Assembly: GCA_946547315.1 (NCBI GenBank) | Contig: CAMNOY010000002.1 | Location: 13,878 to 77,877, forward strand | Source: an uncultured Lachnospiraceae bacterium | Lineage (GTDB): Bacteria > Bacillota > Clostridia > Lachnospirales > Lachnospiraceae | DNA length: 64,000 nt | Reading direction: 5' to 3' | Shown here: in pieces, positions 8,314 through 40,783 of the stretch | Layout: each line of letters opens with the position of its first letter | Position numbering within the stretch: position 1 is the stretch's first letter | Program-made: the position numbers and the translations under genes | The notes under the pieces: generated by a model | Seen by the model: the letters and a program-made list of their open reading frames with translations, nothing else | Databases searched by the model: none | Told to the model about the DNA's origin: nothing

Positions 8314-9429
8314 TTACATCAGATTTTCGGGGTTCAGACATTCCAGCTCCGGAATCACAAATCTGCCATCCTTTCTGATCAGAACATCATCAAACCAAAT
8401 CTCTCCTCCACCGTATTCCGGCGTCATAATAAGTACAAGATCCCAGTGGATTGCCGATTTGTTTCCGTTAGGTGCATCATCGTAACACATACCCGGCGTA
8501 AAATGAATGCTTCCGCTTATCTTTTCGTCAAACAGTATTTCCTTCATTGGCTTCGTAATATACGGATTGATACCGATGGCAAACTCACCGACATATCTTG
8601 CACCTTTATCGGTGTCAAATACACGGTTAATTCTTTCATCATCATTAGCTGTAGCCTTAACAATCTTTCCGTTTTCAAAAGTAAGACTTACACCTTCATA
8701 AGTGAATCCTTCGTATCTTGAAGGTGCATTATATGTTATCACACCGTTTACGGAGTCTTTGACCGGAGCCGTGTAAACCTCCCCATCCGGAATATTCATA
8801 TGACCGTCACATGCAATTGCCGGAATTCCCTTAATTGAAAACGAAAGATCAGTTCCCTTTGCCACAAGCCTTACTTTATCTGTTTTATTCATGAGATCGA
8901 CAAGATTCAGCATGGCTGTTCCCATTTTTTTGTAATCAAGATTACATACGTTGTAATAGAAATCTTCAAACTGCTCAAAACTCGAATCCATAAGCTGCGC
9001 CATGGCATCGGTCGGATATCTTAGTACAACCCATCGCGTCTTCGGCACCCTGATCCCATGATGAACAGGTGATGAATACAGGCGATTATACAATGATAGT
9101 TTCTCTGCAGGAACATCAGAAAGCTCCGATGCATTATCAGCAGCTCTTACTCCTATGAAACAATCCATCTGAGACATCATTGCACTGTCCGTCTCACACA
9201 TTATTCGAAGCTGCTCATCATTGCAGTCCATAAGCAATTCCCTATGAACACGCTGGCTTTCAAAATGCGGAAAAGGCATCCCTCCCGCAGCATATACCTC
9301 CTTAACTAGTGCTCTTGCGAGATCCTCTGTATCATCTCCGATATAATTGATCCAGACTTTATCGCCTTTTTGCACTCTTACAGAATAATTGACAAGATTG
9401 TACGCCAATTTATGCAGTCTCTGATCCAT
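8314..9429 (-). CDS. M29 family aminopeptidase (AmpS/PepS-like)
   Basis: 371 aa with thermophilic-metalloprotease-family-like sequence (...GSIHFTPGMCYDD...HWDLVL). ATG with a GGAGA RBS. Confidence 0.8.
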   Translation of the reverse strand: MDQRLHKLAYNLVNYSVRVQKGDKVWINYIGDDTEDLARALVKEVYAAGGMPFPHFESQRVHRELLMDCNDEQLRIMCETDSAMMSQMDCFIGVRAADNASELSDVPAEKLSLYNRLYSSPVHHGIRVPKTRWVVLRYPTDAMAQLMDSSFEQFEDFYYNVCNLDYKKMGTAMLNLVDLMNKTDKVRLVAKGTDLSFSIKGIPAIACDGHMNIPDGEVYTAPVKDSVNGVITYNAPSRYEGFTYEGVSLTFENGKIVKATANDDERINRVFDTDKGARYVGEFAIGINPYITKPMKEILFDEKISGSIHFTPGMCYDDAPNGNKSAIHWDLVLIMTPEYGGGEIWFDDVLIRKDGRFVIPELECLNPENLM

Positions 9430-9453: not shown

Positions 9454-12066
9454 CTATTTAATATATGTTATAAACCTGTTCCCGGCCTTTTCAAACAAAG
9501 ATTTTGAATCATTCATTCCGAGTTTGTACACCCTCTCTTCCCCGGGATCATACAAAATCGTATTTTTACTGTCGTAACCTGTGATTATCACTGCTGTGCC
9601 CTGCCCGGTCATCGCCATCACCGGATACCCTCTTGAAACATAATAGAGTACATCGGACAATGAAACTCCCGATAAGTCAAGTACATCGGCTTCAAGATTG
9701 TCCGACAGAACCCTTGCAAGTGATTTTCTGCGAATTTCTTCTTCACTGCTCTTATATACTCCTCCCGACTGAAGCATCATATCTATGCACTTTACATACG
9801 AAGAAGTATTATCGGTTTCCGGTGCGCCTTCGGATTCACCTTCTTCAGTTGACGCTTTTGGAGTCGTCTCACTTATCTCAAGACTTGTAATCTTGGTACT
9901 TGCTTTCCTGTTACTGCTTTCCCATACATATGCCATTTGCTTGTTTGTTACAACCCCGTATAGATCTCCGGCTATTTCAACCGCCTCGGAGGCCGACGAG
10001 TATATTCCTGCTATTTTTCCTTTTGCATATACATAATATCGCTTAAGAGTATCATCATCCTTGATGGAAACATCCCTGCTGCCCTCAAATACAACTTCTT
10101 TTGGATTTGTGACCTTAACGGATGATTTTTCCCCGTCTCCCCCTTTATACAACACTGTCTGATAGGTGGTTTCCGTCTTTTCGGTGACTACGCTTGACAA
10201 CTTGTTCTTAAGAGTTGTCTGTGTCTTGTTGTTTACGATCTGGTCATCCTCTATAGGCAAAAGCTCACCGCTGTCGGGTTCCTTCGTGGCTCGTGAAAGT
10301 ATGAGAAGATTATCCGATTTTTCGACACCAAGAACGTATACTCCATCCTGATGATAGTCCTTAAGAGTGTTACCGTTTTGGTCCTGAATCCTGACGGAAT
10401 ACATCGGTATGATTGTTTTTCCGGTGTAATCGTTTGTAACATCTGACACCCTTGCCGCCCCGTAAATGACATCATTGTCCATAAATCCCAGGGGAATAAC
10501 CACCTCTCCCGCTCCTGAGGGTATCGTATAGGGTGTCATGCTGTTAAGTTTGAACAATTGTATCTGTGTAAAATCAACAACCGAATCCCCTGTCTGCCAC
10601 GCTATAATACTTTCATCATCCGAAGAGTAGAAACCTGTTTCGCTTATGCTTGCCTGCATTATCTCGGATTCCCTGTCTGTGATATTAATCGAATATACAC
10701 CGCCGTCAAGAAAAATGTAAAATCTGTTTCTTGAACTGATATAGGCAAGATTATTAACCTCAACGGAAAGCATTTCATATGACTTGGTATAAGGAATAAA
10801 CAATTCCTCCTCTATCGTATTAAGCGCACAATCATAGTAATACAGCGCAACTCCGACTTTCCCCTCATTTATGCCTCTGTTCATGTATCCATACACTATA
10901 AACCATATATTACCGACACCATCGATCATCATGGGTTTAATCGAATGAGCATTGTACCTTGTACGTTCATCGTTGTTGTCTTTATCCGCAAAGGCAAAAA
11001 GTCTTGCCATCGTATTGGATGATGTATTGTATGAATAGAGTGCATTCTGTTGGACAAATGCATATATGGTCCCGGCATCGTTTTCAATTCCCTCCGGCTT
11101 CTCATTAATCATTCCATGGAGGATCTTGCCGTTTACAACCACATTCTTGTCCGCATCAAATACCTGATCCATGATTCTTTCGTATTCCATCAGGTACATT
11201 CTCTTTCCCCGCTGGAGACGGAAAAACTCGGAAACATTGTGGGTCTCGGACATTATCTCAACCTGGTAATTCAGCATAATCGAGGCCGTCGTCTCATCAA
11301 TCTCAAGGATTTCCATATCTTTGCCGGTGATCAGGACCGGCTCCAGTTCTCCCCATGTCAACTGGTTAAAGTTTGAGTGTATATTGACATAAGCATAACT
11401 GGAATTATCACCGTCAGCATTTGTTTCCATGTATTTTTTTATTGATTCGGCAGCTTCCTTATCCATGGTCCTGTCGGAAAAATCCCTGACAAATTCCATC
11501 TTTTCCGACAGATAAAGCTCCGCTCTGTTAATCACTCTTGCGTAATACCTGATTACGCTTCCGCCGGATGTTGTAAGCTTGATAATAAGCATATATTCGG
11601 TGTCGTCCTCGATCAGGTCTTTGAGTGTCGCCGTCGCATAAATTACATCGCCTTCATAGGTAAAATCAGATACTTCCGTCTCTTCTATCAACCTGGACAT
11701 GTCAAGCGGCCTTACTTCATAAGAAACTTTAGCAATGACCGCATCATAAAGATCTGCGCGAAAGGTCACGGATCTGTTCGCCATAAGGGGAGTTATCGGT
11801 CCACGAAGATAATTCCCCTCCATTTCCGTTGTATACCCATGGAGAGGATTGATATATTCGTCATTAACGTTCATATACACGATCGGAAGTGTCGCCTTGG
11901 ACATCTCTGCCGTCATATCCGTATTTCCCCTGTTCAGGACAATATTTGATACAAACAGGGATATCAGAAACAATACAAACGTTACCGAGAGTTTAATTAT
12001 TCTTCTTCTGAATTTGTTTTGATCCATAAAACAAAATCGTGACGACGAATGAGTATTCGCCGCCAC
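9454..12066 (-). CDS. large membrane-anchored protein of unknown function
   Basis: 870-aa uninterrupted ORF with one N-terminal TM helix (LSVTFVLFLISLFVSNIVL). The start is uncertain (GTG 12066 or ATG 12027) and neither has a clear RBS. Confidence 0.65.
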   Translation of the reverse strand: MAANTHSSSRFCFMDQNKFRRRIIKLSVTFVLFLISLFVSNIVLNRGNTDMTAEMSKATLPIVYMNVNDEYINPLHGYTTEMEGNYLRGPITPLMANRSVTFRADLYDAVIAKVSYEVRPLDMSRLIEETEVSDFTYEGDVIYATATLKDLIEDDTEYMLIIKLTTSGGSVIRYYARVINRAELYLSEKMEFVRDFSDRTMDKEAAESIKKYMETNADGDNSSYAYVNIHSNFNQLTWGELEPVLITGKDMEILEIDETTASIMLNYQVEIMSETHNVSEFFRLQRGKRMYLMEYERIMDQVFDADKNVVVNGKILHGMINEKPEGIENDAGTIYAFVQQNALYSYNTSSNTMARLFAFADKDNNDERTRYNAHSIKPMMIDGVGNIWFIVYGYMNRGINEGKVGVALYYYDCALNTIEEELFIPYTKSYEMLSVEVNNLAYISSRNRFYIFLDGGVYSINITDRESEIMQASISETGFYSSDDESIIAWQTGDSVVDFTQIQLFKLNSMTPYTIPSGAGEVVIPLGFMDNDVIYGAARVSDVTNDYTGKTIIPMYSVRIQDQNGNTLKDYHQDGVYVLGVEKSDNLLILSRATKEPDSGELLPIEDDQIVNNKTQTTLKNKLSSVVTEKTETTYQTVLYKGGDGEKSSVKVTNPKEVVFEGSRDVSIKDDDTLKRYYVYAKGKIAGIYSSASEAVEIAGDLYGVVTNKQMAYVWESSNRKASTKITSLEISETTPKASTEEGESEGAPETDNTSSYVKCIDMMLQSGGVYKSSEEEIRRKSLARVLSDNLEADVLDLSGVSLSDVLYYVSRGYPVMAMTGQGTAVIITGYDSKNTILYDPGEERVYKLGMNDSKSLFEKAGNRFITYIK

Positions 12067-13911: not shown

Positions 13912-13921
13912 TTATTCTAAA

Positions 13922-14025
13922 GGTCGCTCGGCCAGTAAGGTGTGTCGCCCATTCAGATCGCCTTCGGCGATAGGGGCTCCACGTGCAGACAGGGTCCCAC
14001 CGCTTCGCGGTTCCCCCTATCAGCC
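13922..14025 (-). repeat. stop-codon-abutting structured repeat, copy A (atpG-atpD intercistronic)
   Basis: Near-identical to 27721-27808 (3 mismatches in ~84 nt by eye). Contains hairpins ATCGCC-TTC-GGCGAT and ACCGC-TTC-GCGGT. Confidence 0.9.
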
Positions 14026-14928
14026 TATTGCCTCAGCGCCACCAATGATCTCTGTAAGCTCCTGCGTAATCGCACCCTGTCTGGCACGGTTATACTGAAG
14101 CTCAAGTCCCGATATCATCTTCTCCGCATTGTCCGTTGCAGAGTCCATAGCCTGCATTCTGGCTCCGTTCTCACTTGCAACTGCCTCGATAAGTGCTCCG
14201 TAAATAAGGCTTGTCACATACTTCGGAATTATGGCATCTAATGCCTCATCCGAATCGGGCTCATAGGTCATAAGAGCTCTTTTCTCACTTTCAACTCCTG
14301 CATCGGGTTTTATGGATTCTTCACCCTCTTTACCTGATACAGACTCGGTAGGCGTACTGTCTTCTCCCAGCGGTAAAAGTTTCTGAAGCTTCGGTACATG
14401 CACAACGGTATTTTTAAATATCGTATAAGCAACGTATATTTCTCCGATCTCCCCCGCCGCATATTTTTTAAGCAGATCACCGGCCAGTTCGGACGCATCG
14501 GAATACAACGGTTCCTCGATCATATCCGAATTCTCGTACACAATCTCATATCCGGATCTTTTTACACTGTCACGGCCCTTTTTACCTATAGCATAAATTA
14601 CCAGTTCATCAGTACTCCAACCGCTCTGTGTTACCAGCTTGGTAATATTGCTGTTATACCCTCCGGCAAGTCCTCTGTTTGAAGTAATGAGAATAACCGC
14701 CTTCTTGTTGCACCCATTAGGCTTCATAAGAGGATGATCGATATATCCCGACTTGCTCATAATCGAAACAATCGTATCATACATCTGCATTGTGTAATTC
14801 TTACTCTGCTCCGCACGCGTCTTGGCTCTTTGAAGCTTGACCGTGGAAACAAGTTTCATTGCCTTGGTAATCTGCTGGGTAGACTGTATACCTGTTTTAC
14901 GTCTTTTGATGTCGCGCATCGACGCCAT
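14020..14928 (-). CDS. atpG: F1 ATP synthase subunit gamma
   Basis: 302 aa, gamma family (MASMRDIKRRK...ITQELTEIIGGAEA). The stop codon lies inside repeat copy A. Confidence 0.93.
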   Translation of the reverse strand: MASMRDIKRRKTGIQSTQQITKAMKLVSTVKLQRAKTRAEQSKNYTMQMYDTIVSIMSKSGYIDHPLMKPNGCNKKAVILITSNRGLAGGYNSNITKLVTQSGWSTDELVIYAIGKKGRDSVKRSGYEIVYENSDMIEEPLYSDASELAGDLLKKYAAGEIGEIYVAYTIFKNTVVHVPKLQKLLPLGEDSTPTESVSGKEGEESIKPDAGVESEKRALMTYEPDSDEALDAIIPKYVTSLIYGALIEAVASENGARMQAMDSATDNAEKMISGLELQYNRARQGAITQELTEIIGGAEAIG

Positions 14929-17840: not shown

Positions 17841-17900
17841 CTATAATTTGTTATCTATTATTAATATTCTAATCTGCATTTACAAGGAGACTCGCCCCCC

Positions 17901-18617
17901 CTATTCAGCATTTATAGCATCAGCGACATATGTCATTGTCAGCATACAGAATACGTATGTTTGGATTGCGCCCGAAAACAAATCGAAATACAAATGTAGG
18001 AATCCCGGCCAGCCCCATGCAATCTTGGAAAGAAGACCATATACAAGAGCCATCATAACCGTTCCCGAAAGAATATTCGCAAACAGACGCAGGGAAATAG
18101 ATACCGGTACCGCAACATCACCTATAACATTGATGGGTGCCCAAATCGGCCATGGATCGCACAAACCTTTTAGAAATCCTCCGACCCCCTGATGTTTTAT
18201 CTTGTTGTAGAAAATCATCCCGAAAGTAATAAGTCCCAGCGGTAAGGTTACTCCGTAATCCGCTGTCGGGGGACGCAGTCCCAAAAGTCCTGAAAAATTA
18301 CTGATAAGTATAAAGCAAAACAGGGTCGATATGTATCCGAGAAACTTCGTGGCACTCTTCCCCATACATCCCGTAATCATGTTATCAAGCATTTCAACAA
18401 TGAGCTCAACTATGTTCTGGAAAGTACCCGGCTTGGCATAAGGGTCTGCATTGACTATCACATGATGCGCGCACAGGCCAAACACTGCAAACAGCAACAG
18501 AACTATCAACAGGCAAACATGTGTTGTTGTAATCCACACAGTCTGGCCGAATATCTGATAAGAGAATATGCCTTTTATCATGAAATTGACATCGGCTGCC
18601 AATAGAACGCTATTCAC
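17901..18617 (-). CDS. atpB: Fo ATP synthase subunit a
   Basis: 238 aa and polytopic, with the conserved SLRLFANILSG motif. GTG start with a GGAGG RBS. Confidence 0.9.
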   Translation of the reverse strand: MNSVLLAADVNFMIKGIFSYQIFGQTVWITTTHVCLLIVLLLFAVFGLCAHHVIVNADPYAKPGTFQNIVELIVEMLDNMITGCMGKSATKFLGYISTLFCFILISNFSGLLGLRPPTADYGVTLPLGLITFGMIFYNKIKHQGVGGFLKGLCDPWPIWAPINVIGDVAVPVSISLRLFANILSGTVMMALVYGLLSKIAWGWPGFLHLYFDLFSGAIQTYVFCMLTMTYVADAINAE

Positions 18618-27648: not shown

Positions 27649-27688
27649 CAAAAAAAGAAAATGCCGACTGTAAACAGCCGGCATTTTC
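27649..27688 (-). terminator. intrinsic terminator downstream of ferredoxin gene/repeat copy B
   Basis: Minus strand reads GAAAATGCCGGCTG-ttta-CAGTCGGCATTTTC followed by TTTTTTT. Confidence 0.8.
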
Positions 27689-27693
27689 TATAT

Positions 27694-27813
27694 CGCGGTC
27701 CCCCCTATCAGCCTTCTTTAAGGAGTGTCGCCCATTCAAATCGCCTTCGGCGATTGGGGCTCCACGTGCAGACAGGGTCCCACCGCTTCGCGGTCCCCCC
27801 TATCAGCCTTCTT
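27694..27813 (-). repeat. stop-codon-abutting structured repeat, copy B (with perfect 25-bp flanking direct repeats)
   Basis: cgcggtcccccctatcagccttctt occurs at 27694-27718 and 27789-27813 (period 95). The core is shared with copies A and C. Confidence 0.92.
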
Positions 27814-27973
27814 CAATAGCGCCTACGGGGCACTGTGCTGCGCATGCTCCACAGCTTACGCACTTATCCGCATCAATTTCATACTTACCGTCTCCTTCGG
27901 AGATAGCACCTACAGGACACTGTCCTGCACATGCTCCGCATGAAATACAGCCGTCTTTGATAACAAATGCCAT
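27803..27973 (-). CDS. 2x[4Fe-4S] ferredoxin
   Basis: 56 aa with two CxxCxxCxxxCP motifs. The ATG at 27973 has a GGAGG RBS. The stop codon lies inside repeat copy B. Confidence 0.9.
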   Translation of the reverse strand: MAFVIKDGCISCGACAGQCPVGAISEGDGKYEIDADKCVSCGACAAQCPVGAIEEG

Positions 27974-28068
27974 GACAAATACCTCCTTTACTGTTTTCCT
28001 TTTCAACTATCACAAATATGTTTATCCGACGAACATTTTACATCAAAAGCCGCCGAAACTCAATATTA

Positions 28069-31503: not shown

Positions 31504-31518
31504 AATTTTTTCCTCCTA

Positions 31519-31713
31519 TCAAGAATAATCATCCAGGCCCTGATGAAGCGTCGGAACACTGCACGCGAGCGGCGTTCTCGAACAATCGGTACACCCCATC
31601 GTCTCTGTGCTTCTGTTTTCTGTCTGCGTTTCATCGACATCTACGTTCAAATGTCCGACTCCGCTTTCGACAGAACCGTCAAGTAATGCTACGAGATCAT
31701 CAATCTGATCCAT
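31519..31713 (-). CDS. 64-aa degenerate GrcA-like paralog lacking the glycine-radical loop, Cys-containing tail
   Basis: MDQIDDLVALLDGSVESGVGHLNVDV aligns with [24 protein letters not shown] of the next ORF (15/24 identical). GGAGG RBS 7 nt before the ATG at 31713. Whether it is expressed is unproven. Confidence 0.5.
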   Translation of the reverse strand: MDQIDDLVALLDGSVESGVGHLNVDVDETQTENRSTETMGCTDCSRTPLACSVPTLHQGLDDYS

Positions 31714-37107: not shown

Positions 37108-38877
37108 TCATTTATAATATTCGTCTATAATTTGGAAAGCCTCTTCCGTTCCGAATGCCAGTTGCCAAACTGCGGCTCCGCCTATGTCATGAGCCTTCAT
37201 AACATCAAGCTTCGCCTGAATTGATTTGATGTCTTCAAGCCATATTTTGTTTGTACCTTCCGAAGTTTTCCATTCCGCGTAATTCTGACCGCTTGCCTCG
37301 TCCCACTCCGGCACCGCACCCGCTGCCGTTACGGTTTCGAGCCCCTTTGTCATCGTAAGAGTCTGCATATCCAATATGTTTTCATTGTCATCGACAATCC
37401 AGTATCTGACATAGAATGGGAGTGCATTTACGATTTTCTCCTTTGGAACCTCTTCAAGAGTCTTTTCTATTCCTTCCATGACAAAATCCAGAGATGCCAC
37501 CGAGCCCGCCTCTTCCGACGCAGCCGTATGTTCATCGTATCCCATTATAATCACATAATCGGCAAATATACCCTGTTCCTTGCGGTTATAATGCATAGAG
37601 TATTCCTTGGGAACATAGTTATCCACCGAGACTACAAGGTTTCTGGAATGAGCCTTTAATGAGAATTCCCTTATAAACTGAATATACGACGGTCCCACAT
37701 CTGACGGTACCGATTCAAAGTCTATGTTTATTCCGTCAAGATTATACTGTGCCGCATAGTTTAACAACTGCTCCGTAACATAATCTCTTTTTTCCGGATA
37801 TGGCAATATCTCCCCCAAACTCACTTCCGGATATGTCAGGTTGCTGACAAGCCCCCAGACTTTCACTCCCTTCGCATGGCACGTTTCCACATATGCCGAT
37901 GAAGCAATGGATTCCACCGTACCTTCATTGTCAGCCAGAGCGAACCACGTCGGCGAGATCGTGTTTATATACGGAAGAAATTTTTCATTCTCCTTAAGAT
38001 ACTGTGTCGAATTCTCATTTGTGACATTATGCCACGCAAGTATCACCGGCTGCGTGTAGTCGGCAACAGGGGTTACAGTTATGGGAGCAACATCGGTTAC
38101 AGGGGTTTCCGGACGGTCATACTTCTCCCCCAGGTGTTTAGTTTCAACATATCCTGTAATAAGATCATCCGTTGTGACCTTTACCCATTTTTCGTTTTCC
38201 GAAGCTACGATAACAACCGTATTCCCCTCCCGCAGCTTCTTTAATATGTCACCCTCTTTGTCTGCAATGGTTCTGACAGCTATATCATCCTCTATAACAT
38301 CCGCTACTACATCGGTTCCCCACTCGGTTTTGATACACGCACGGTATGGCTCTCCTCCCCCGCCGTACAGCTTATAATCAAAGTTTGTGAATATCCTGAC
38401 ATAGTCAAGACATACCATCAGCGTATCTCCGTTTTTGTAGCAGATCTGATATCCGGTCTGGGTGCCGTTACCGTCAAGTGTATAATAATTATCCTGAAGA
38501 TTGGCAGCATAGACCCCTTCACCCGTTGTGTACAGGAGACGGTCATCTGTCTGCTCCCAGTAAAAATTCCCGTTATATTTTTCAATAACTGTCTCATAAG
38601 GAATATACAGCTTACCATCTTTTACCGTGATCTTATCATCAGTTACCTCTCCGTTTTCCACAACGGAAGCAGTATCATTAGATGTTGTCTTGAAATAACT
38701 GTTAAGATCAGCCATCCTGCTTGAATAACCCCAGTCATCAAATAACCCGGTACTCTTTGCAACAAGCAGTATAATCCCGATAAGTGCTATCGCTATTACA
38801 ACAGGCAGAACCGCCTGTAGGATTTTTCTTCTGCGTCGGCGCCTGCGCCTTGACTCTTTTGATCCGTTATATGCCAT
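37108..38877 (-). CDS. GH18 family glycosyl hydrolase (YaaH/YdhD-like) with N-terminal TM anchor
   Basis: 589 aa, LDGINIDFE catalytic motif (DxxDxDxE type). GGAG RBS directly after repeat copy C. Confidence 0.82.
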   Translation of the reverse strand: MAYNGSKESRRRRRRRRKILQAVLPVVIAIALIGIILLVAKSTGLFDDWGYSSRMADLNSYFKTTSNDTASVVENGEVTDDKITVKDGKLYIPYETVIEKYNGNFYWEQTDDRLLYTTGEGVYAANLQDNYYTLDGNGTQTGYQICYKNGDTLMVCLDYVRIFTNFDYKLYGGGGEPYRACIKTEWGTDVVADVIEDDIAVRTIADKEGDILKKLREGNTVVIVASENEKWVKVTTDDLITGYVETKHLGEKYDRPETPVTDVAPITVTPVADYTQPVILAWHNVTNENSTQYLKENEKFLPYINTISPTWFALADNEGTVESIASSAYVETCHAKGVKVWGLVSNLTYPEVSLGEILPYPEKRDYVTEQLLNYAAQYNLDGINIDFESVPSDVGPSYIQFIREFSLKAHSRNLVVSVDNYVPKEYSMHYNRKEQGIFADYVIIMGYDEHTAASEEAGSVASLDFVMEGIEKTLEEVPKEKIVNALPFYVRYWIVDDNENILDMQTLTMTKGLETVTAAGAVPEWDEASGQNYAEWKTSEGTNKIWLEDIKSIQAKLDVMKAHDIGGAAVWQLAFGTEEAFQIIDEYYK

Positions 38878-38891
38878 TATTTATCTCCATT

Positions 38892-38998
38892 CCCCTATCA
38901 GCCTATTCAAGGAGTGTCGCGCATTATAATCGCCTTCGGCGATAGGCGCTCCACGTGCAGTCAGGGTCCCACCGCTTTCGCGGTCCCCCCTATCAGCC
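38892..38998 (-). repeat. stop-codon-abutting structured repeat, copy C (acyl-CoA synthetase / GH18 intercistronic)
   Basis: Same core as copies A and B, with about 6 substitutions plus a 1-nt insertion. 14-bp direct repeat cccctatcagccta at both ends (period 95). Confidence 0.9.
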
Positions 38999-40627
38999 TA
39001 AGTTCTGGGCCTCTACCAGTCCCTTGCCTCCGTACAGTTCCCGAAGCTTGGGTTTTTCGATTTTACCGGTAGGATTGCGTGGAATATCCGCAAAAATAAT
39101 CTTATGAGGCCTCTTATATCTGGGCAGTGCCATGCAGAATTCATTCATCTCATCTTCGGTTATAACATAATCCTTCTTCAGTTCAATTATCGCACAGCTT
39201 ACTTCACCAAGCCTCTTATCGGGTATACCGATAACGGCAACATCATGAACCGCCTCATTAGTCCTTATAAAGTCCTCTATCTGCACGGGATAAATGTTTT
39301 CTCCACCGCTTATGATCACATCCTTCTTGCGGTCAACAAGCATAATAAACCCGTCCTCGTCCTCCATAGCCATATCACCTGTATAGAGCCATCCGTCAGC
39401 GAGAACCTCTTTTGTTGCTTTGGGATCATGATAATAGCACTCCATCACACCCGGACCTTTAACTGCAAGTTCTCCAACTTCCCCCTGTTTTACCGGTTTA
39501 CGGTCTTCACCTACTATTGCAGTCTCCCAGCCATACCCGGCTTTTCCTATGCAGCCGACCTTATGGATATTCTCAACTCCCAAGTGTACACAGCCCGGTC
39601 CGATAGACTCGGAAAGTCCGTAATTTGTGTCATACTGATGATTCGGGAACAGTTCCTTCCACTTTTTGATAAGACTTCTCGGAACAGGCTGAGCCCCTAT
39701 GTGCATCAGTCTCCACTGTCCAAGCTCATAGTCGGACAGATTAACCTTCCCGCTTTCTATCGCCTCAAGGATGTCCTGTGCCCACGGAACAAGCAGCCAT
39801 ACTATTGTACATTTTTCCTTTGAAACGGCATCGAGTATGATCTCCGGCGCTGTTCCCTGAAGCAGTACGGCTTTTGATGCCGAATACAGGCTTCCAAACC
39901 AGTGCATCTTAGCTCCCGTATGGTACAGGGGCGGAATAAGAAGAAATACATCGTCTCTTGTCTGACCGTGATGGTTCTGCTCACATACCGCGGAATGCAT
40001 CAGTGAACGATGCTTATGCAAAATAGCTTTGGGAAATCCGGTTGTACCCGACGAAAAATAAATCGCCGCATCGTCCTCGTCCGTAAGAGTAATATCAGGT
40101 TTCACGCTTGAGCAGTTTGCCACAGATTCTTTGTAATCGTCAGCAAATGTAGGACAGTTATCTCCCACATAAATAAGCAGTCTCTTCTTTGAAAGTTCAT
40201 CACATATCTCTTCAATTCTTCCTATGAATTCGGGACCGAATACAAGAACATCTATCTGGGCAAGTTTTGCACAGTACATTATCTCATCGGAAGAGTATCT
40301 GAAATTAAAGGGAACCGCCAATGCGCCGGTTTTGAGGACACCGAAATATACCGGAAGCCATTCAAGGCAGTTCATCATCAGGATTCCTACCTTTTCTCCC
40401 TTTTTTACACCTCTTGAAATCAGATAATTGGCAAAGCGGTTTGCCTTCTCATCAAAGACACTCCATGTTATCTCACGACGATAAGACTCTTTCTTGGTAC
40501 TTTCTATAAGTTCATATTCCTTCCATGTTACTCGCCTGTTTTCCTTGATCTTGGGATTGATCTCAACAAGTGCAACATCATTCGGATACATTGTCGCATT
40601 TCGTTCAAGCAGTTCTGTAATAGGCAT
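38993..40627 (-). CDS. AMP-forming acyl-CoA synthetase/ligase
   Basis: 544 aa, SSGTTGFPKA AMP-binding motif, ANL superfamily. GGAGGA RBS. The stop codon lies inside repeat copy C. Confidence 0.88.
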   Translation of the reverse strand: MPITELLERNATMYPNDVALVEINPKIKENRRVTWKEYELIESTKKESYRREITWSVFDEKANRFANYLISRGVKKGEKVGILMMNCLEWLPVYFGVLKTGALAVPFNFRYSSDEIMYCAKLAQIDVLVFGPEFIGRIEEICDELSKKRLLIYVGDNCPTFADDYKESVANCSSVKPDITLTDEDDAAIYFSSGTTGFPKAILHKHRSLMHSAVCEQNHHGQTRDDVFLLIPPLYHTGAKMHWFGSLYSASKAVLLQGTAPEIILDAVSKEKCTIVWLLVPWAQDILEAIESGKVNLSDYELGQWRLMHIGAQPVPRSLIKKWKELFPNHQYDTNYGLSESIGPGCVHLGVENIHKVGCIGKAGYGWETAIVGEDRKPVKQGEVGELAVKGPGVMECYYHDPKATKEVLADGWLYTGDMAMEDEDGFIMLVDRKKDVIISGGENIYPVQIEDFIRTNEAVHDVAVIGIPDKRLGEVSCAIIELKKDYVITEDEMNEFCMALPRYKRPHKIIFADIPRNPTGKIEKPKLRELYGGKGLVEAQNLG

Positions 40628-40721: not shown

Positions 40722-40760
40722 GTCAAACGCAAAAGAGACCATATAAAATGGTCTCTTTGC
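40722..40760 (-). terminator. intrinsic terminator after rpsR
   Basis: Minus strand reads AAAGAGACCA-ttttata-TGGTCTCTTT followed by TGCGTTTG. Confidence 0.7.
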
Positions 40761-40783
40761 TATACGGTTCCCTCCTTACAGCC
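40761..40783 (-). repeat. solo motif resembling the repeat end (GGCTGTAAGGAGGGAACCGTATAG)
   Basis: About 20 of 27 aligned positions match GGCTGATAGGGGGGACCGCGATATAG of copy B's distal end. It has the same context: directly after a stop codon and directly before a terminator. Confidence 0.4.

Follow-up and report, generated by a model that had tools for sequence, protein, structure and literature searches.

The REP/BIME repeats of Enterobacteria and Pseudomonas, which go with RAYT transposases, are abundant GC-rich hairpin repeats in operons and 3' untranslated regions (UTRs), with genome-specific variants and a proposed role in mRNA stabilisation; REPs are single palindromes of 20–40 nt with a GTAG/CGTC tag, occur in both orientations and often form inverted pairs. 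The BOX repeats of Streptococcus pneumoniae and the ERIC/IRU repeats of Enterobacteria are transcribed repeats of 100–200 nt with stable RNA folds, BOX having a modular A-B-C make-up and ERIC having orientation-dependent effects on mRNA. Among the Firmicutes, the bcr repeats of the Bacillus cereus group include bcr4-6, which have a conserved RNA structure, compensatory changes, strain-conserved positions and co-transcription, as well as bcr families of the MITE type (miniature inverted-repeat transposable elements) with defined target duplications. Here we describe a repeat unit found in a 64,000-nt stretch of DNA from an uncultured Lachnospiraceae bacterium (contig CAMNOY010000002.1 of assembly GCA_946547315.1, positions 13,878 to 77,877 of the forward strand; hereafter the window) and in related genomes. 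We assign a probability of about 0.55 to the reading that it is a structured interspersed repeat, comparable in kind to REP, BOX, ERIC and bcr elements, which is lineage-specific, non-coding, non-autonomous and co-transcribed and belongs to a subclade of rumen Lachnospiraceae.

Copies and remnants of the unit in the window

Three full units were located in the window, each on the minus strand at the 3' end of a minus-strand gene, with covariance model (CM) matches of 97–106 bits. An earlier prediction made from the sequence alone (hereafter the original prediction) had named the same three copies in the same orientation; its count stands for full units, but two decayed remnants (17869–17912 and 40760–40783) were overlooked. 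Identifiers such as L012 denote loci fetched from genomes and metagenome contigs, and the covariance model was run over all of the fetched DNA. The features are as follows.

13936–14027, minus strand: copy A, full unit (CM match 103.8–106.4 bits) in the atpG-atpD intercistronic spacer, with the atpG stop TGA (14020–14022) in its head
13917–13935, minus strand: 3' end fragment CTGGCCGAGCGACCTTTAG of a CGC/GCG-type unit, downstream of copy A, matching the 3' ends of L016:1463-1555, L032:9218-9408 and L043:11892-11988
17869–17912, minus strand: decayed remnant in the atpB-atpE spacer, a head AATGCTGAATAGGGGGGG fused directly to a tail CGAGTCTCCTTG and followed by a partial head, with the atpB stop TAG in the head
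27719–27810, minus strand: copy B, full unit (CM match 104.7–106.1 bits) in the 3' UTR of the ferredoxin gene
27807–27798, minus strand: head/P1 5' strand of copy B, containing the ferredoxin stop TGA (27805–27803)
27794–27782, minus strand: P1a hairpin of copy B, from fold and pair analysis
27777–27768, minus strand: P1 3' strand of copy B, from fold and pair analysis
27765–27725, minus strand: P2 domain of copy B, holding the P2a hairpin (27754–27740)
27724–27719, minus strand: tail of copy B, CUCCUUA
27693–27718, minus strand: partial second head after copy B, AAGAAGGCTGATAGGGGGGACCGCGA, 26 nt identical to 27788–27813, with a period of 95
27656–27689, minus strand: intrinsic terminator of the ferredoxin transcript, directly downstream of copy B and outside the unit (context)
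38908–39000, minus strand: copy C, full unit (CM match 97–98 bits) between the acyl-CoA synthetase gene, whose stop TGA (38993–38995) is in the head, and a GH18/SH3 gene
38892–38905, minus strand: second head TAGGCTGATAGGGG after copy C, 14 nt identical to 38987–39000
40760–40783, minus strand: solo head of hybrid type, GGCTGTAAGGAGGGAACCGTATAG, with rpsR on one side and the acyl-CoA synthetase gene on the other, and upstream of a terminator

The three units are 92–93 nt long. Copies A and B differ at 5 of 92 positions, A and C at 9 positions plus one gap, and B and C at 8 positions plus one gap, a likeness over 92 nt that rules out chance. As had been noticed before, the units are richer in G+C than their surroundings (61–62% versus 44% for the window). 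All three carry AGGC-TGA-TAG-GGGG at the 5' end, and the TGA stop codons of the minus-strand open reading frames (ORFs) 14020–14928, 27803–28006 and 38993–40627 lie inside the first 12 nt of the unit, AGGCTGATAGGGG. Precomputed Pfam matches identify these host genes as ATP-synt gamma (atpG), Fer4 (ferredoxin, fdx) and AMP-binding (acyl-CoA synthetase, acs). Copies A and C are intra-operon, and on the gene strand neither has its own promoter or terminator; an internal promoter was considered and rejected. Copy B has a stop codon on one side and an intrinsic terminator on the other. A self-contained small RNA gene, one of the options first proposed, is unlikely because the units are intra-operon and without promoters of their own.

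The direct repeats described around copies B and C were recovered at 27788–27813 and 27693–27718 (26 nt) and at 38987–39000 and 38892–38905 (14 nt). What had been taken for a degenerate distal repeat of copy A is the 3' end fragment of a different subfamily, listed above. The remnant at 17869–17912 was recognised by comparison with loci in which this site is filled: L014, L038, L056 and L057 have full GAC/GUC-type units there, and L012 has two tandem units. The window holds no further C-GNA-G hairpins besides those of the known copies. The window proteins that were scanned or looked up, which represent part of the ORFs, include no transposase, integrase or reverse transcriptase (RT), as originally reported, and no Y1 domain.

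Fold, covariation and distribution of the family

The gene-sense consensus of the family is WAUGCUGAUAGGG-GGR-[ACCGC-GNA-GCGGU]-GGGA-CCCUGUCUGC-AC-GUG-GA-GCCC-n-[AUCGCC-GNA-GGCGAU]-UnnnAAU-GGGC-GA-CAC-YCCUUR. It adopts a two-arm fold composed of a head with helix P1 (GCUGAUAGGG:CCCUGUCUGC), an optional P1a hairpin, an 'AC' linker, helix P2 (3 bp, a tandem GA/GA and 4–5 bp), a P2a hairpin with a C-GNA-G loop, and the tail YCCUUR-3'. Both hairpins of the original prediction reappear in this fold. Its outer helix GGAG/CTCC does not, as covariation backs GUG/CAC, the tandem GA/GA and GCCC/GGGC instead, and its CACGTG palindrome is incidental, being CACGAC or CACCGC in other subfamilies with compensating changes on the opposite strand.

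The structure is supported by two alignments. When 19 sequences are aligned with plain MAFFT, standard pairs make up 92.4% of the cells, versus 29–49% when partner columns are slid by 1–3 positions, and compensatory changes occur at 8 pairs. Among 40 distinct sequences aligned by the model, 23 of the 29 base pairs covary, and the observed score was reached by none of the shuffles (0/500); covariation, proposed earlier as a check on a structured RNA, is therefore strong. The outer three pairs of P2 switch among GUG/CAC, GAC/GUC and CGC/GCG, and the tandem GA/GA is constant in 37–38 of the 40. The P2a loops are GNA (mostly GAA) or four-nucleotide loops of the form G..A, some of them GNRA (GUAA, GCAA) and others GCCA or GUCA. 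Constant unpaired or non-canonical positions comprise the GA/GA, the GGGA internal loop and the 'AUG' before the P2 3' strand, and a U·G pair in P1 is conserved as well (30/40). G·U and U·G pairs number 44, versus 6 A·C and C·A pairs, and the predicted folding energy is –41 to –49 kcal/mol for the sense RNA versus –33 to –40 kcal/mol for the antisense RNA. The G·U excess together with the better sense folding identifies the gene-sense strand as the folded strand.

The P1a hairpin is optional: it is absent in L013, L030 and L008:6261 and is enlarged by a conserved sub-domain of about 40 nt in L012, L050 and L054. This sub-domain (L012:4350-4395, L054:380-420 and L050:440-500) is inserted in the P1a loop or replaces it, consists of a hairpin AUCYUGYAY-GAA-RUGYRRGAU followed by GCC..CCGGCGAGGG, and occurs in copies from different species and contexts. 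In a shortened unit at L059:6940-7083, the sequence between the two ACGAAGT stretches making up the P1a and P2a loops is deleted, and the two similar loops in this case serve as internal direct repeats promoting decay.

Several resemblances to known RNAs were considered and rejected. The head sequence CUGAUAG recalls CUGAUGA of the hammerhead ribozyme, but its positions covary as a helix. For an HDV-like topology, the would-be P3 (that is, P1a) is dispensable and the J4/2 segment is absent, and a GAGC stretch reminiscent of group II domain V has different pairing partners. A mini-ORF starting from the constant AUG (AUG-GGC-GAC-ACU-CCU-UAA, MGDTP*) loses its frame and stop codon in other subfamilies.

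Beyond the three original sites, copies are present in many related genomes. About 40 distinct copies were collected from metagenome-assembled genomes (MAGs) of rumen Lachnospiraceae and from metagenomes, with unit lengths of about 78–130 nt and typically 92–96 nt. An exact-pattern scan of 185,579 species genomes returned seven loci, all in Lachnospiraceae MAGs (rumen or reindeer) with one match apiece. The scan of JGI metagenomes gave 21 loci, 18 of them true copies; the other three (L017, L018, L026) are chance pattern matches. Many matches lie less than 1 kb from contig ends, as is expected of a repeat that breaks short-read assemblies. The model search revealed diverged extra copies in the flanks of the loci, which in nearly every case share the strand of the first copy (L049 and L054 being exceptions), and head-to-tail tandems spaced by 2–3 nt (L012:274-368 with 371-465, and L032:9218-9311 with 9315-9408). 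Past the atpG-atpD unit of L012 (4460-4545), 17-nt 3'-end fragments from two subfamilies, TTGACCGAGCGACCTAA and CGTGTCGACACACCTTA, alternate in a tandem array that repeats about every 34 nt. Outgroup species, whose AtpG is 74–79% identical to that of the window, have the atp operon without the unit, and the family therefore appears to be confined to a subclade.

None of the Rfam 15 families, including hammerhead, twister, pistol, hatchet and HDV-like ribozymes, riboswitches, small RNAs and 5S rRNA, has a gathering-level match in the window, which agrees with the original view of an unclassified, structured and oriented repeat outside Rfam. At E<=10, copy B gave only terminator-driven or chance matches of at most 21 bits, and the diverged subfamilies gave nothing. 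Likewise, blastn found no match in PLSDB plasmids and INPHARED phages, and the exact core pattern had none in IMG/VR. Full-text searches of the literature and a look at the '224 candidate structured RNAs' paper (PMC5737381) gave no description of the motif. The family is previously undescribed and, as far as the searched collections (Rfam, PLSDB, INPHARED) show, not homologous to REP, BOX, ERIC or bcr repeats, all of these being set apart by description and not by direct sequence comparison.

An 88-nt diverged relative is cleanly inserted between atpA and atpG in two loci (L057:9883-9975 and L058:9883-9975) and is absent at L056:9945-10010. It has an AU-rich P1 and no tandem GA, shares the UCCAC-GAA-GUGGA hairpin and the UUUGAAUGG loop, and scores 18.9 bits with the model, which suggests a wider superfamily barely within the reach of the model.

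Placement, orientation and turnover in host operons

The unit lies inside transcription units, either abutting the upstream stop codon or located at the transcript 5' end, and it usually stops just short of the ribosome-binding site of the next gene or of a terminator. The upstream stop codon is within P1 or at most 6 nt from its base, and the tail often ends 8–20 nt before the next start codon. Protein-coding operons carry the unit in the sense orientation at all of the ~18 sites, including the following.

atpG-atpD spacer: window, L012, L029, L056
atpB-atpE spacer: L012, L014, L038, L056, L057
Ferredoxin 3' UTR: window, L020
rpsR 3' UTR: L043 and others
rplW-rplB spacer: L011
flgB 5' UTR, directly after a TTGAT-N17-TACAAT promoter: L008, L013, L021
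flgB-flgC, flgC-fliE and fliE-fliF spacers: L008, L016
Upstream of a probable dnaG: L027

The atpG-atpD, fdx 3' end and flgB 5' UTR sites are filled in several species with structure-preserving differences, and their units are of long residence. The flagellar operon is unusually densely occupied, with a unit in the flgB 5' UTR and in each spacer of flgB-flgC-fliE-fliF (L008:5700-6836 and L016:1000-1600). AtpG homologues end in ...GGAEA(L/I)G across the clade, so the Gly codon just ahead of the unit is native. The head resembles ordinary junctions that combine a stop codon and a Shine-Dalgarno (SD) sequence, for example UGAUAGGAGG-N9-AUG at window position 31515. This head-like gene junction (31505–31530, minus strand; UCU-UGA-UAGGAGG-AAAAAAUU-AUG) carries no unit in the window, nor in L037 and L040.

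In rRNA/tRNA operons the unit occurs in both orientations, with about 14 antisense and 2 sense copies, some of the antisense copies being orthologous and so representing fewer independent events. Antisense copies are flush with the 5' ends of tRNA genes in L006, L007, L010, L015, L028 and L033. A strict rule of antisense placement in tRNA operons, drawn from 10 of 10 copies, was overturned by two sense copies in further loci (L054, ~365-482, and L049, ~120-236). The uniform orientation first proposed consequently holds for protein-coding operons and fails in rRNA/tRNA operons. Firmicute rRNA operons are co-directional with replication, which is assumed in the comparison of orientations; the rRNA/tRNA genes are on the same strand as neighbouring protein genes, and the atp-operon copies lie with the leading strand according to GC skew. 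In the atp and S10 operons it is the coding strand that folds, and beside 23S rRNA and tRNA genes mostly the template strand. This opposite polarity indicates that replication direction does not set the orientation of the unit. The sense-only rule is particular to translated operons and may reflect either RNA-level selection or targeting of stop/SD-like sequences.

It should be noted that in six loci the 23S 3' end is followed by tRNA genes with no 5S rRNA gene in between (L007:3790-3982, L010:364-581, L028:2297-2415, L049:119-286, L050:250-521 and L054:111-276), and that the covariance model places a repeat copy in this spacer in five of the six (not in L028). A degenerate 5S rRNA was considered, as the unit is at the place expected for 5S after 23S, but there is no 5S match and the strand is mostly the wrong one.

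Turnover was followed by comparing the window with metagenome contigs that encode identical proteins at the same sites. At the fdx 3' site, 1.26 units are present in the window, L037, L039 and L041, and one copy of the 25–26-nt repeat is present in L038 and L040 with identical flanks, the difference being an exact 95-nt indel between 26-nt repeats; L034 and L035 carry differing decayed versions. At the acs 3' site, a lone 14-nt head without a unit is present in L043 and L047, the window has a head, a unit and a head, and four other strains have a head plus 6 nt. Given how short the flanking repeats are, assembly collapse is ruled out at acs (14 nt) and unlikely at fdx (26 nt). Directly after the second acs head, a 7-nt unit (AATGGAG / ATTGGAG) varies in copy number between the window (38870–38895, minus strand) and L044:13783-13816, and four strains retain 'head+GGACCG+AATGGAG+ATTGGAG' at this site.

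The rpsR site holds a full CGC/GCG-type unit between two non-identical parental heads in L043, L044, L046, L047 and L048, the older head alone in L045, and a hybrid of both heads in the window, as expected of the product of head-to-head recombination. The atpB-atpE spacer contains 0, 1 or 2 units, and in the window a head joined to a tail. At atpG-atpD, L057 and L058 are empty (...GGCTGA|ACATATT...), and L056, with an identical AtpG protein, is filled without a second head. In the former two loci the 88-nt relative is inserted at CCCTA|CAGGG between atpA and atpG, possibly with a TA duplication, and the AtpG protein is identical in strains with and without it. A 'TA' target duplication agrees with this diverged insertion and with the ends of several units, but the empty site at atpG-atpD does not fit it. 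The flanking direct repeats at the five polymorphic sites measure 26, 14, ~7, 2 and 0–1 nt, the long ones being copies of the head of the element itself. This pattern fits rare de novo insertion combined with frequent gain and loss by recombination at resident heads.

Among the neighbouring genes in the window, a large minus-strand ORF (9454–12066; 870 aa as listed, 816–866 aa in related contigs) lies directly downstream of the atp operon. It has no Pfam match at E<=1e-5, and its synteny is kept across the clade.

Interpretation and implications

The unit is present in multiple copies, has a conserved fold on an identified strand, is sense-only in mRNAs, overlaps stop codons, and is gained and lost as a whole, leaving hybrid heads. 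It is also non-coding, intergenic, lineage-restricted and polymorphic in presence or absence between strains, and in these features it agrees with the class of repeats introduced above. With REP/BIME it shares its GC-rich hairpins and its occurrence in operons and 3' UTRs, but at ~95 nt (78–130 nt across the family) and with two arms and a tandem GA it is not a single palindrome, GTAG occurs in only few head variants, and it is sense-only in mRNAs and overlaps stop codons; we know of no RAYT gene in this clade. The modules of BOX are comparable to its head, optional P1a, P2 and tail; however, BOX and ERIC belong to other taxa, occur in both orientations, and show no systematic stop-codon overlap or unit indels between head repeats. 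The bcr repeats are the Firmicute parallel for its compensatory changes, strain-conserved positions and co-transcription, but to our knowledge they are unrelated in sequence and fold, and neither stop-codon overlap nor head-mediated gain and loss has been described for them.

Other known systems fit less well. Integron attC sites also keep structure over sequence, have a variable terminal structure (compare P1a), lie at gene 3' ends in one orientation and are gained and lost as units. The present unit, in contrast, lacks the R''/R' core sites (no GTTRRRY or RYYYAAC at its ends on either strand), has a second structured arm, and is found in atp, rpl, flg and tRNA operons, that is, beside core operon genes and not cassettes, with no integrase domain found in the window. 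A riboswitch or gene-specific leader disagrees with the mixed downstream contexts (atpD, atpE, a GH18 gene, flgB, flgC, fliE, fliF, rplB, a probable dnaG, terminators and tRNA spacers). Nor is the unit a classical MITE of DDE-transposon origin, since its 5' end TGCTGATAGGGG and the reverse complement of its 3' end AGGAGTGTCGCC show no inverted repeats and its flanking repeats of 0–26 nt are not a target-site duplication (TSD) of fixed length. Of the readings in the original prediction, the REP-like co-transcribed element and the non-autonomous mobile element fit best and are merged here, and the models it named, MITE and IS200/IS605, do not fit.

Under the reading as a co-transcribed interspersed repeat, the unit would be transcribed with its host operon and act as an RNA. 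RNA-level selection in translated operons, homology of the head to natural stop-plus-SD junctions, or both, could account for its sense-only placement. In Firmicutes, 5'-terminal stem-loops and SD-like stabilisers are known to block RNase J1. By analogy, a stable structure in an intercistronic region or UTR may block RNase J1 from the 5' side and 3'-5' exonucleases from the other, and segmental mRNA stabilisation is its most likely effect; in addition, the unit would supply stop codons and an SD-like sequence at gene junctions. Its spread may depend on a factor encoded elsewhere or on recombination alone. The gain and loss of single units proceeds by recombination at the head, with its stop codon and SD-like purine run, and leaves the solo and hybrid heads, tandem arrays and end fragments.

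Several points weigh against this interpretation. The scanned or looked-up window proteins include no mobilising enzyme, and what is seen is gain and loss at given loci, not movement to a new locus. The near-identity of copies within a genome could come from gene conversion rather than transposition. Action as an RNA and the stabiliser role are inferred, and both C-GNA-G triloops and tandem GA pairs have very high stability in single-stranded DNA (ssDNA) as well, so that the structure may fold at the DNA level. The count of 23 covarying pairs out of 29 rests on an alignment fitted to the model. Finally, the antisense excess in rRNA/tRNA operons (~14 versus 2), flush with tRNA 5' ends, is not accounted for.

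A host regulon element is a possible, if unlikely, alternative. Here each unit would be the binding site of one trans-acting factor (an RNA-binding protein, an RNase or the 30S subunit) that co-regulates many operons, among them atp, flagellar and ribosomal-protein operons, with copies kept by selection and homogenised by gene conversion without mobility. The constant GA/GA, GGGA loop and 'AUG' positions are what such a site would show, as are the optional conserved P1a sub-domain in L012, L050 and L054, the sense-only orientation in mRNAs, and the orthologous occupancy of the flgB 5' UTR, atpG-atpD and fdx 3' end in several species with compensatory changes. However, single copies are dispensable, given that strains with identical flanking proteins differ in the presence of the unit, and the host genes are functionally unrelated. 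Moreover, tRNA spacers are filled too, mostly on the non-transcribed strand, and the tandem arrays and end fragments resemble repeat dynamics.

Somewhat more doubtful is an ssDNA element of the IS200/IS605-PATE or REP/RAYT kind, in which the two C-GNA-G hairpins on one DNA strand would be the target of a Y1 HUH transposase encoded elsewhere, and this enzyme would excise and insert the unit as an ssDNA circle of ~95 nt. IS200/IS605-derived PATE elements have hairpins near both ends, a strand-specific fold, no terminal inverted repeats (TIRs) and little or no target duplication, and the present unit resembles them in part, with its GC-rich P1a and P2a hairpins, of a type very stable in DNA, although P1a is not always present, and with its 0–2-nt duplication at the two clean insertion sites. 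Head-to-tail tandem copies and the position of the folded strand on the lagging-strand template in co-directional protein operons (by GC skew) are also consistent with it. On the other hand, no conserved tetra- or pentanucleotide target adjoins the left end, where the flanks vary, ending in any of the three stop codons or in sequence complementary to tRNA 5' ends. Orientation is not set by replication, as the polarity differs between the atp/S10 and rRNA/tRNA operons, the copies beside 23S rRNA and tRNA genes being mostly of opposite polarity relative to replication. The two hairpins are unlike in sequence, P1a is missing in three otherwise conserved sub-lineages (L013, L030, L008:6261), and the covarying 10-bp P1 and 8-bp P2, with the optional sub-domain, exceed what such ends need; none of the window proteins covered by scan or look-up is a Y1 gene product.

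It is improbable that the unit is a self-contained, gene-less mobile module with a single-stranded circular intermediate of RNA or DNA, which would choose its targets by pairing of the internal P1 strand (CCCUGUCUGC) with stop/SD-like heads at gene junctions. In addition, the antisense copies within the highly transcribed rRNA-tRNA operons may give rise to RNAs able to pair with the sense copies that atp, flagellar and ribosomal-protein mRNAs carry, which would tie those operons to growth rate.

Least credible of all is an RNA-borne element, cut from host transcripts at the repeated heads by self-cleavage or a host RNase, circularised to a 95-nt RNA and copied back into DNA in a retrozyme-like manner, or integrating by pairing of the P1 strand with stop/SD-like targets: the 14–26-nt terminal redundancy around exactly one unit, the tandems with 2–3-nt spacers, the conserved P1 U·G pair (30/40), the complementarity of the internal P1 strand to the stop-plus-SD-like head and the sense orientation, which a need for host transcription would suit, speak for it, but no Rfam ribozyme family matched even at permissive thresholds, the hammerhead-like and HDV-like resemblances fail on inspection, no RT was found nearby, many tRNA-operon copies are antisense, and the second head is missing at clean insertions.

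Points of particular interest are the spread without TIRs, TSD or target motif, the exact placement at stop codons, and the tRNA-operon copies that are mostly reversed and flush with tRNA 5' ends. The combination of strong covariation with head-based gain and loss of units, and with no cis-encoded enzyme, TIR, TSD or target motif, makes the family a tractable case for the spread of gene-less repeats and for distinguishing action as RNA from action as DNA. In practical terms, the units fragment short-read assemblies, shift annotated gene ends and serve as sharp strain-level presence/absence markers. If the reading as a co-transcribed interspersed repeat holds, a clade of abundant uncultured rumen Lachnospiraceae has a dense layer of structured repeats in its core operons (atp, flagellar, ribosomal-protein and tRNA), and these repeats probably shape mRNA processing and stability besides providing stop codons and SD-like sequence.

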